This document shows, piece after piece, positions 63,235 to 63,371 of a stretch of 64,000 nucleotides of DNA. Below the pieces are notes generated by a model, which worked only from the letters and a program-made list of their open reading frames with translations, did not search any database and had not been told where the DNA came from. The translations under genes and the position numbers were made by a program. The DNA is from Candidatus Omnitrophota bacterium (GTDB lineage Bacteria > Omnitrophota > Gorgyraeia > Duberdicusellales > 4484-171): NCBI GenBank assembly GCA_043815185.1, contig JBDRJF010000024.1:128533-192532 (forward strand), read 5' to 3'. Position 1 is the first letter of the stretch; every line of letters starts with the position of its first letter.

Positions 63235-63371
63235 GCCGGGGTGTTGGTAACAACTATTGCGAAGCAATAGTAAGTGAGTAATAAATGCGATAGTTGTTCC
63301 CAAAATTTCCAGCAGGATAGGTAAGAGTTTTATAAGCAAGTATAAGCTTTATTGCGAAAGAAAAACCTTAT
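63235..63371 (+). repeat. Upstream module U3 (137 nt) starting with the first 13 nt of tRNA-Leu(TAA)
   Basis: gccggggtgttgg occurs at 63235 and again as the tRNA 5' end at 63372. It is followed by taacaactattgcgaagcaatag...atagttgttcccaaaat. Confidence 0.8.

Follow-up and report, generated by a model that had tools for sequence, protein, structure and literature searches.

The 64-kb stretch of a Candidatus Omnitrophota genome analysed here (hereafter the window) is a housekeeping origin region containing rpoD, dnaG, pheST, glmS, gyrAB, dnaAN, yidC and parAB, and no mobile-element gene was found among the 20 of its 62 open reading frames (ORFs) of at least 120 aa that were scanned against Pfam. 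Two of its tRNA genes, tRNA-Leu(UAA) and tRNA-Leu(GAG), are preceded by short modules, one at the former and two in tandem at the latter, in which the 5′ end of the tRNA is repeated and leads directly into a structured element that we call S. The architecture of these modules, their presence or absence in related genomes and a set of mirror-image modules at tRNA 3′ ends suggest that they arose by insertion into the D-loop region of tRNA-Leu genes accompanied by duplication of the gene end that was hit.

Architecture of the upstream modules

Upstream of tRNA-Leu(UAA), a run of 14 nt (TGCCGGGGTGTTGG) is present at 63234–63247 and is repeated where the tRNA begins (Table 1). The core of this repeat is a 13-mer, GCCGGGGTGTTGG, that occurs as two exact copies in the window (63235–63247 and 63372–63384), 137 nt apart, against a chance expectation of 0.02; the repeat length becomes 14 nt once nt −1 is counted. 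The closing stem of S begins within the fragment itself and comprises 12 layers, namely 4 bp between tRNA nt 10–13 and ccaa, a T/C mismatch, and 7 bp (aacaact/agttgtt), such that in the RNAfold prediction ttgg-t-aacaact (63244–63255) pairs with agttgtt-c-ccaa (63292–63303). In UAA units, and in the CAA units found elsewhere (see below), a degenerate strand resembling the 3′ strand of an acceptor stem begins 3 nt past this D-stem mimic, and in the UAA unit the strand and S together form a mimic of a tRNA 5′ half. The acceptor-like helix is kept in the RNAalifold consensus of the five UAA/CAA units, with GC, AU and GU pairs at tRNA nt 6, so that one compensatory pair tracks that position of the tRNA. 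The first ~30 nt of the linker between S and the tRNA are homologous between UAA-type and GAG-type units, and the remainder is type-specific. The sole ORF of at least 50 aa that overlaps the module (63184–63339, minus strand, 51 aa) is taken as a chance frame.

The tRNA-Leu(GAG) gene is preceded by two tandem 139-nt units, a and b, starting at 9058 and 9197. Their stem (gcgg-a-aacagct/ag(c/t)tgtt-c-ccgc) and hairpin (cttgc-GCA-gcaag) fold in RNAfold as those of the UAA unit do, and the shared core AACARCT-N-TTGC-N3-GCAA occurs three times in the window versus 0.25 expected. In unit b the stem holds one G·U pair, hairpin 2 differs, and the linker contains a sigma-70-like promoter (9294–9322, TTTATA-17-TATAAT). 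Because the junction of unit a (fragment plus junction) is the one closest to orthologues (identity 0.94 to locus L009; scan matches and related loci are cited by L numbers throughout) and the linker of unit b is the copy closest to orthologues (identity 0.85), the second unit is best explained by unequal crossing-over between the 14–16-nt repeats, followed by drift of the redundant inner parts.

The initial annotation of this sequence, made by a model from the letters alone, had reported the repeat of the first 13 nt of tRNA-Leu(UAA) 137 nt upstream of the gene, the 12-layer helix with its T/C mismatch, and an equivalent helix mismatched at the same place in the GAG units. The repeat was confirmed at those coordinates, and RNAfold predicts the same pairing for the UAA unit and the equivalent one for both 139-nt units. 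Its expectation of tandem accretion was only partly upheld: unit number does vary (two in the window; one in L006, L007, L009 and L022), but one old insertion plus unequal crossing-over fits better.

Distribution and covariation

The searches used a single degenerate pattern, run against one genome for each prokaryotic species and against metagenomes of the Joint Genome Institute (JGI). The genome scan gave 10 matches, six of them genuine (L002, L006, L007, L008, L009, L010), and the metagenome scan gave eight, of which six adjoin tRNA-Leu (L012, L013, L015, L016, L017, L018) and one, L011, is a tRNA-less copy; the other matches (L001, L003, L004 and L005, or four of the 10 from genomes, and L014, one of the eight from metagenomes) are chance matches in coding DNA with no tRNA nearby and were discarded. 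All tRNA-linked copies lie 134–139 nt upstream of tRNA-Leu, and the public genomes that bear them carry the label Candidatus Susulua stagnicola (Omnitrophota) or ‘uncultured Planctomycetia’. Proteins of the window itself show 100% identity to ones named Candidatus Omnitrophota bacterium. The module precedes tRNA-Leu genes with the anticodons UAA, CAA, GAG and CAG in one clade of Candidatus Omnitrophota. No 5′ fragment was found upstream of any non-Leu tRNA of the window, nor at 30 non-Leu tRNAs examined. The homologous S-type junction of L011 (1722–1780, plus strand) lacks a tRNA fragment, and no tRNA gene stands within 4 kb of it; bordered by gtcaaga...tcttgac, it occupies the intergenic space between two divergent genes, proC and one for a secreted protein.

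A covariance model (R1) built from 13 copies from the window and public data scored every copy at 64–74 bits and found no further S copy in 179 kb (the window plus 115 kb of related loci). Rfam 15 returned no family, ribozyme or intron on the modules of either window locus, at the gathering threshold or at E up to 10, and four related loci, scanned whole at E up to 0.1, gave nothing either; across the window, its matches at the gathering threshold were the tRNAs and one 6S RNA only. Viral contigs contained no S copies, the S pattern giving one chance match in coding DNA, and a full-text literature search turned up no description of such modules.

Each of the 12 distinct copies linked to a tRNA has a fragment corresponding to nt 1–13 of that tRNA (13/13 in 11 of them and 12/13 in L012), and the fragment tracks tRNA-specific or lineage-specific bases at nt 4, 6, 10 and 11. 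The partner tetramer follows tRNA nt 10–13 (ttgg/ccaa, gcgg/ccgc, atgg/ccat), with a single broken pair, in L006. Across 13 distinct copies (alignment A2), pairing holds in 98.6% of helix cells and changes on both sides are seen at four pairs; none of 500 shuffles reaches the observed covariation score, and slid controls collapse. The non-Watson–Crick departures are G·U or U·G only, and these fall on the tRNA-sense strand (window unit b, L022). Fragment plus junction contain 26 invariant columns over 12 copies and 24 over 13, and linker identity between GAG-type units is 57–85%. The loop of hairpin 1 is GNA in most copies (GAA, GCA, GGA) and CAA in L010, the GNA triloop being closed by C–G in 12 of the 13 copies.

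These comparisons bear out the view put forward in the initial annotation that the module is the 5′ part of a tRNA with a structured insert in place of the D-loop, and that upstream modules are restricted to the two Leu tRNAs of the window; the match between fragment and neighbouring tRNA, on which its covariation argument had been made to depend, holds in every distinct tRNA-linked copy. Two of its claims need qualification. The base of the helix was said to covary with the tRNA, and the ccaa/ccgc partner does track the fragment, but this is partly expected of a relic of the D-stem 3′ strand and is not independent proof of a new interaction. A GCGAAGC-type mini-hairpin, described there as unusually stable in single-stranded DNA, does open the insert, but it could not be shown to have a special role: the loop is CAA in L010, and the sense-strand G·U departures and the transcription context (see below) favour RNA without proving it.

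Origin of the upstream fragment

Orthologous loci were retrieved through flanking genes, the response regulator for tRNA-Leu(GAG) and gmk–rpoZ for the Cys–Leu–Val tRNA cluster, and the module is absent at seven of them (L024, L026, L030, L032, L034, L035, L037). The window spacer between tRNA-Cys and the fragment is homologous to the tRNA-Cys to tRNA-Leu spacer of the module-less L037, and in L028, which carries a different insert (see below), the fragment stands directly after the response-regulator stop codon, where L026 has an intact tRNA start. Because of these correspondences, the upstream fragment, rather than the 5′ end of the working gene, can be recognized by position as the gene's original 5′ end, behind nt 13 of which ~123 nt were inserted, a new copy of nt −1 to 13 forming the end of the insert and completing the working tRNA. 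The S-bearing GAG loci (window, L007, L006, L009, L022) group together in a neighbour-joining tree of the response regulator, which indicates that the module was gained once at the GAG locus and then passed down vertically for a long time; the response regulator beside the module has diverged to 76% amino-acid identity among the inheriting lineages.

Transcription context

In L008 and L016 the fragment follows a consensus-like promoter (TTGACA-17-TATGAT) at a distance of 12 nt, in the window and in L002 S lies within a Cys–Leu–Val tRNA cluster, and in L022 and L007 the distance from the upstream stop codon to the fragment is 10–26 nt (10 nt in L022). A promoter is detectable in the linker in only four GAG-type units. 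From the promoters upstream of the fragment, the cluster location, the short upstream spacers and the scarcity of linker promoters we infer that in most loci the tRNA must be transcribed through S. The proposal that S always supplies a promoter was rejected, as it is true of those four GAG-type units only. Together, the wobble pairs and the transcription context speak for a leader RNA of the sense strand.

Other events at the same site

Two loci from one contig show that this position in tRNA-Leu genes has received other DNA. In L028 (2433–2523, plus strand), from a sister lineage, nt 1–20 of tRNA-Leu(GAG) are followed by a 50-nt insert, GCAGACA, 11 nt and then the intact tRNA, giving a period of 91 nt. 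The insert is unrelated to S and is bounded by the complementary hexamers CCCTAC and GTAGGG, GCAGACA matches the 3′ part of the tRNA D-loop, and the 91-nt unit has no significant fold in RNAfold (z-score = +1.2). In L036 (3497–4174, plus strand) a free-standing ORF of 225 aa encoding a LAGLIDADG homing endonuclease (35.2 bits in Pfam versus a cut-off of 22.5; among solved structures its closest relative is a putative homing endonuclease) separates tRNA-Cys from tRNA-Leu(UAA), its stop codon abutting the 5′ end of the latter, which has an unusual D-arm, GTCGAAATTGGCAAACGAT. Intron models gave no match at this locus. A pseudo-D-arm upstream of the endonuclease gene was also considered; it is unproven and was not flagged by a local-alignment screen with a reporting threshold of 24.

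The D-loop sequence is common to all Leu isoacceptors seen (D-arm sequence GGTGGCGGAATTGGCAGAC). Since S, the L028 insert and the L036 endonuclease gene occupy the same place, insertion into the 5′ D-arm region of tRNA-Leu genes seems to have recurred in Omnitrophota.

Mirror-image modules downstream of tRNA genes

Five of the eight window tRNAs (Leu-UAA, Leu-GAG, Val-GAC, Arg-CCG, Glu-UUC) carry a second copy of nt 56–73, located 120–150 nt downstream and preceded in each case by a three-way junction different from S; the initial annotation had missed these modules. The closing stem of these junctions has the same 4+1+7 geometry as that of S (4 bp, one mismatch, 7 bp), the 4 bp take in the four bases with which the tRNA fragment begins (CAAG/CTTG, CGAG/CTCG, CGAT/ATCG, CAAA/TTTG), and the stem covaries with T-loop nt 56–59. 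As these nucleotides are unpaired in the tRNA, the tracking cannot be that of a relic stem. Hairpin 2 is swapped for another hairpin between orthologues and cUUCGg loops are common; a 21-nt hairpin, GGTTGAGGCTWAGCCTCAACC, is identical in two window modules and one base off in a third, and the downstream hairpin had no match in viral contigs.

The distribution of these modules among relatives is patchy, that of Leu-UAA being absent from L002, L012 and L013 and that of Leu-GAG occurring in the window and L007 alone. In L007 and L012 CCA is retained by the distal copy and has been lost from the working tRNA, and in L007 the distal copy (gcaCCA) is followed by atggcaaagattatttt, the downstream-gene sequence that follows the tRNA in the module-less L009. 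The two window tRNAs with an encoded CCA (Val-UAC, Cys) have no downstream module. Because CCA is kept in the distal fragment and native downstream sequence follows it in L007, the comparison identifies the distal fragment as the displaced original 3′ end, and the downstream modules as apparently recent insertions into the T-loop region. We dropped as a general feature the complementarity of one downstream strand to the whole displaced 3′ fragment, which is significant only for tRNA-Arg (z = −3.2) and borderline for Leu-UAA (z = −1.6). Another kind of 3′-end rearrangement is seen after tRNA-Val(GAC) in L035 (~3579–3630, plus strand), where two extra copies of ATCGCCCA and an inverted T-arm copy, GATACAGGACTTGAACCTGTATCGCCCA, precede the usual trailer, TGGTTTTAT.

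Table 1. Positions of the tRNA-Leu genes of the window and of the upstream and downstream modules.
Feature	Coordinates	Strand	Evidence
Orphan copy of tRNA-Leu(UAA) nt −1 to 13 (tGCCGGGGTGTTGG)	63234..63247	+	Exact repeat
S element, three-way junction	63244..63303	+	RNAfold; RNAalifold; pair counts on 13 copies; covariance model R1
Hairpin 1 of S, attgc-GAA-gcaat, opening the insert	63256-63268	+	
Hairpin 2 region of S, weak and variable	63269-63291	+	
AU-rich linker, S to functional tRNA	63304..63370	+	Alignments, z-scores
Acceptor-3′-strand-like segment ttccagca, pairing with fragment nt −1 to 7	63307..63314	+	RNAfold
Functional tRNA-Leu(UAA), CCA not encoded	63371..63458	+	ARAGORN; Rfam tRNA, 54.4 bits
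tRNA-Leu(UAA) downstream module: junction 63520-63584, second copy of nt 56–73 at 63582-63598	63520..63598	+	
tRNA-Val(GAC) downstream module	63776-63847	+	
Unit a: fragment 9058-9073, S element 9068-9129, then unit-a linker	9058..9196	+	
Unit b: fragment 9197-9212, S element 9207-9268, linker	9197..9335	+	
Functional tRNA-Leu(GAG), CCA not encoded	9336..9421	+	ARAGORN; Rfam tRNA
tRNA-Leu(GAG) downstream module: junction 9483-9551, then decayed distal tRNA 3′ fragment ending CCA	9483..9567	+	
Remaining two downstream modules (Arg-CCG, Glu-UUC)	40802-40874 and 48872-48952	−	

Other features of the window and related loci

The 6S RNA of the window (15440–15598, minus strand; RF00013, 49.5 bits versus a threshold of 46.4 bits) adjoins a PAC2-family gene and overlaps by ~30 nt the 5′ end of a TTG-start ORF at 14430–15470, the true start of which may therefore be further downstream. 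A 473-nt intergenic region (56778–57250) separates the divergent dnaA (55443–56777, minus strand) and yidC (57251–58705, plus strand), and is probably the replication origin, since gene orientation switches there. Near the end of the window a perfect sigma-70 consensus promoter (TTGACA-17-TATAAT, 63857–63885, plus strand) lies ~45 nt upstream of a tRNA gene (63931–64000, plus strand) that is cut by the window end and is tRNA-Asp(GUC) by anticodon and orthology. Immediately after tRNA-Asp, L037 carries a large serine recombinase gene (3765–5477, minus strand) with Resolvase, Recombinase and Zn-ribbon domains, and the flank following tRNA-Asp, tgaaaccaattcgaactcttgttcttctcatcgagaag, is common to L037 and L034, which suggests an integrated element at tRNA-Asp in these relatives.

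Comparison with known systems

Phages and integrative and conjugative elements (ICEs) that occupy tRNA genes carry an integrase gene and are usually found at the 3′ end of the tRNA. The nearest known kind of structure is the partial tRNA copy left by such integrating elements: partial copies flanking integrated elements, which there span about 9–121 kb, have been described as the general source of prokaryotic tRNA gene fragments (doi 10.1101/2022.07.05.498093). As in duplication at attachment (att) sites, a complete and a partial tRNA copy here form direct repeats (137 or 139 nt apart) that bound inserted DNA, the outer copy being the displaced original end, and empty sites occur in relatives (seven loci). 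The modules differ in that the insert is only ~123 nt, has no ORF, lies at the 5′ end (D-loop) of tRNA-Leu alone and carries a conserved, covarying and vertically inherited junction; nor was an integrase found, all Pfam-matching ORFs among those scanned in the window being housekeeping.

The LAGLIDADG gene of L036 resembles the module in occupying exactly its position, abutting tRNA-Leu(UAA), and the conserved tRNA-Leu D-arm as a homing target would plausibly explain the Leu specificity, a link that is positional only. The window module, however, has no ORF and no intron was detected, and homing alone makes no 14-nt direct duplication. tRNA-Leu(UAA) is a classical intron host, and bacterial tRNA introns, typically longer than 200 nt, interrupt the sole gene copy. 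The module is comparable to these as a structured RNA inserted in a tRNA-gene loop; it differs in that the working tRNA is intact, the insert stands in a truncated copy at the D-loop, and the Rfam intron models are unmatched. At least some of the tRNA introns surveyed in PMC13011429 are group I introns in the anticodon loop (position 35/36).

Among other candidates, likeness is confined to single features. The Cys–Leu cluster and the presence of a non-tRNA part in the precursor invite comparison with the 3′ external transcribed spacer (3′ETS) of leuZ, and S could likewise be released by tRNA processing enzymes and have a role of its own; S has no sequence or structural relation to that RNA, however, and no target can be proposed for it. 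The 3′ETS of leuZ is an E. coli RNA derived from a tRNA-operon spacer, and that spacer contains no tRNA fragment. The DNA sequence d(GCGAAGC) forms an extraordinarily stable mini-hairpin, and GCGAAGC or GCGNAGC tips hairpin 1 in most copies; in L010, however, the motif is GCCAAGC, it stands inside a longer stem, and nothing indicates a single-stranded DNA stage. MITEs (miniature inverted-repeat transposable elements), taken here as having terminal inverted repeats at both ends and a target duplication of 2–10 bp, differ from the module in that its inverted repeats (AACARCT/AGYTGTT) span only the first ~55 nt of the ~123-nt insert, the duplication is 13–16 nt, and only tRNA-Leu-linked copies, not many dispersed ones, were found in the window and the 115 kb of related loci. 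Sequence and geometry also led us to reject integron attC-like boxes, bulge–helix–bulge (BHB) introns and split-tRNA models.

Interpretation

We interpret the upstream module as the outcome of an insertion with duplication in the D-loop of tRNA-Leu, with S acting as a structured RNA in the pre-tRNA leader. Most of the architecture in this reading is established by the comparisons above and its working is largely deduced, and we put the chance that it is correct as a whole at about even. The module would be transcribed on the tRNA strand, within the pre-tRNA-Leu leader or an intergenic spacer, and its RNA would fold as a mimic of a tRNA 5′ half with the junction closed by the D-stem and, in UAA/CAA units, a further helix resembling an acceptor stem; it would then be released when RNase P cleaves at the real tRNA. 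The strict conservation of the unpaired nt 1–9 would imply that the copy must stay identical to the tRNA 5′ strand, either because it competes or pairs with the 3′ acceptor strand of the tRNA during maturation, or because the repeats are the recombination core of a small element that was once, or is still, mobile. The T-loop modules would represent the same kind of event at the opposite end of the tRNA gene, with a recent gain, a 4+1+7 stem and the original 3′ end displaced.

A number of points weigh against this interpretation. The compensatory helix changes across homologues by which a conserved structured RNA is recognized are found here, and few independent events underlie them; the covariation at the helix base is partly explicable by descent from the tRNA's own D-stem 3′ strand (CAA, CGC), an expectation from which the CAA-type module departs, its partner being CAT versus CGT in the tRNA. 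The absence of the module in relatives could reflect secondary, precise deletion between the repeats and not an ancestral empty site. GAG and CAG units have no acceptor-like helix, and in UAA/CAA units hairpin 2 is poorly conserved and an alternative extended stem competes with hairpin 1. The S element has no terminal inverted repeats and no ORF, no insertion-capable enzyme was found among the window ORFs scanned, and we know of no established bacterial precedent for a staggered-cut duplication of 14–18 bp or a 137-bp recombination unit. Finally, both the transcription of S and its folding as RNA are inferred.

A broader proposal is that S and the T-loop junctions are two arms of an undescribed class of small, protein-less structured elements that insert into the D- or T-loop coding region of tRNA genes. 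In such a class, 4 nt of the displaced tRNA end would pair with an internal tetramer at the foot of the 4+1+7 stem, the essential tRNA would be regenerated through duplication of 14–18 nt, and any movement might pass through a single-stranded or RNA intermediate and depend on a trans-acting enzyme such as a homing endonuclease or a recombinase. We offer this tentatively and consider it more doubtful than probable.

The alternative that survives best assigns S to the host alone: it would be a leader RNA that evolved to regulate pre-tRNA-Leu in cis or to take part in its processing, with no mobile element involved. The copied acceptor 5′ strand would transiently pair with the tRNA 3′ strand, or act as a decoy for RNase P or leucyl-tRNA synthetase (LeuRS), tuning tRNA-Leu maturation, and duplication would be merely the route by which the leader was built. 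Such a leader would be expected to show what is seen in long vertical inheritance with conservation much stronger than that of the flanking linker, in nt 1–9 that are invariant although unpaired in GAG-type units, in fragments that follow the tRNA-specific bases at nt 4, 6, 10 and 11, in wobble pairs on the sense strand only, and in the Leu-only distribution. It is harder to reconcile with the close lineages that manage without S (the seven module-less loci listed above), all the more as the Susulua lineage has S before Leu-CAA (L008, L016) and L034, whose Gmk is named Candidatus Susulua stagnicola by a source, has a Leu-UAA without it. Nor does a leader function account for the homologous junction without a tRNA in L011, the unrelated insert (L028) and endonuclease gene (L036) at the same site, or the gain and loss of analogous downstream modules between close relatives. 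On balance we regard a purely host-functional origin as unlikely, if still a serious contender.

In both module types the structured element has at its foot a 4-bp pairing between a tetramer of the flank and one inside the element; this and the C–G-closed GNA triloop of 12 of the 13 copies recall the single-stranded-DNA hairpin elements of the IS200/IS605–REP (PATE/REP) type, recognized by an HUH/Y1 transposase; here the tetramer would guide target choice and the GCGAAGC hairpin would stabilize the DNA fold. Elements of this type insert without target duplication and occur as many dispersed copies, whereas the modules have 14–18-nt direct repeats and a strict association with tRNAs. With no TnpA, RAYT or TnpB-like gene among the window genes examined, and with UUCG-type loops in the downstream junctions that suggest RNA, an origin of this kind seems very improbable.

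We likewise give little credence to the idea of a neutral tRNA-Leu pseudogene, in which a tandem duplicate, now decaying, took up an insertion by chance and has neither function nor mobility. The layout is indeed that of a truncated tRNA, consisting of a 5′ strand and a D-stem, to which UAA/CAA units add a degenerate acceptor 3′ strand and an A after it, but decay should have left the junction no better preserved than the linker (57–85% identity in GAG-type units), and instead there are the invariant columns (26 in 12 copies, 24 in 13) and compensatory changes, and the same junction recurs at four different tRNA-Leu genes. Least probable of all is a double-stranded DNA operator in which nested palindromes (AACARCT...AGYTGTT, YTTGC-N3-GCAAR) bind a dimeric regulator upstream of the tRNA-Leu promoter: the stems are very highly conserved in primary sequence and S lies ~60–125 bp upstream of a sigma-70-like promoter in four GAG-type units, but the G·T departures (window unit b, L022) break dyad symmetry and keep pairing, the helix base changes with the tRNA and offers no fixed half-site, most units have no promoter downstream of S, and nt 1–9 of the tRNA fragment are left unexplained.

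If the interpretation as insertion with duplication is correct, the tRNA genes of Omnitrophota, a little-known phylum, carry a family of conserved structured modules that is listed in no database, and these modules would have arisen by insertion into the two loops of the tRNA elbow, tolerated because the gene end that was hit was duplicated. Classical integration of mobile elements into tRNA genes would then be joined by a miniature, ORF-less variant, and the modules would provide a concrete case of a tRNA half re-used inside another RNA fold, as well as accounting for the loss of the encoded CCA in some tRNA genes of these genomes. They would also supply defined candidates, in the form of a ~60-nt junction with a tRNA-derived tail, and would caution annotators that a tRNA fragment 100–150 nt from an intact tRNA need not mean a prophage border.

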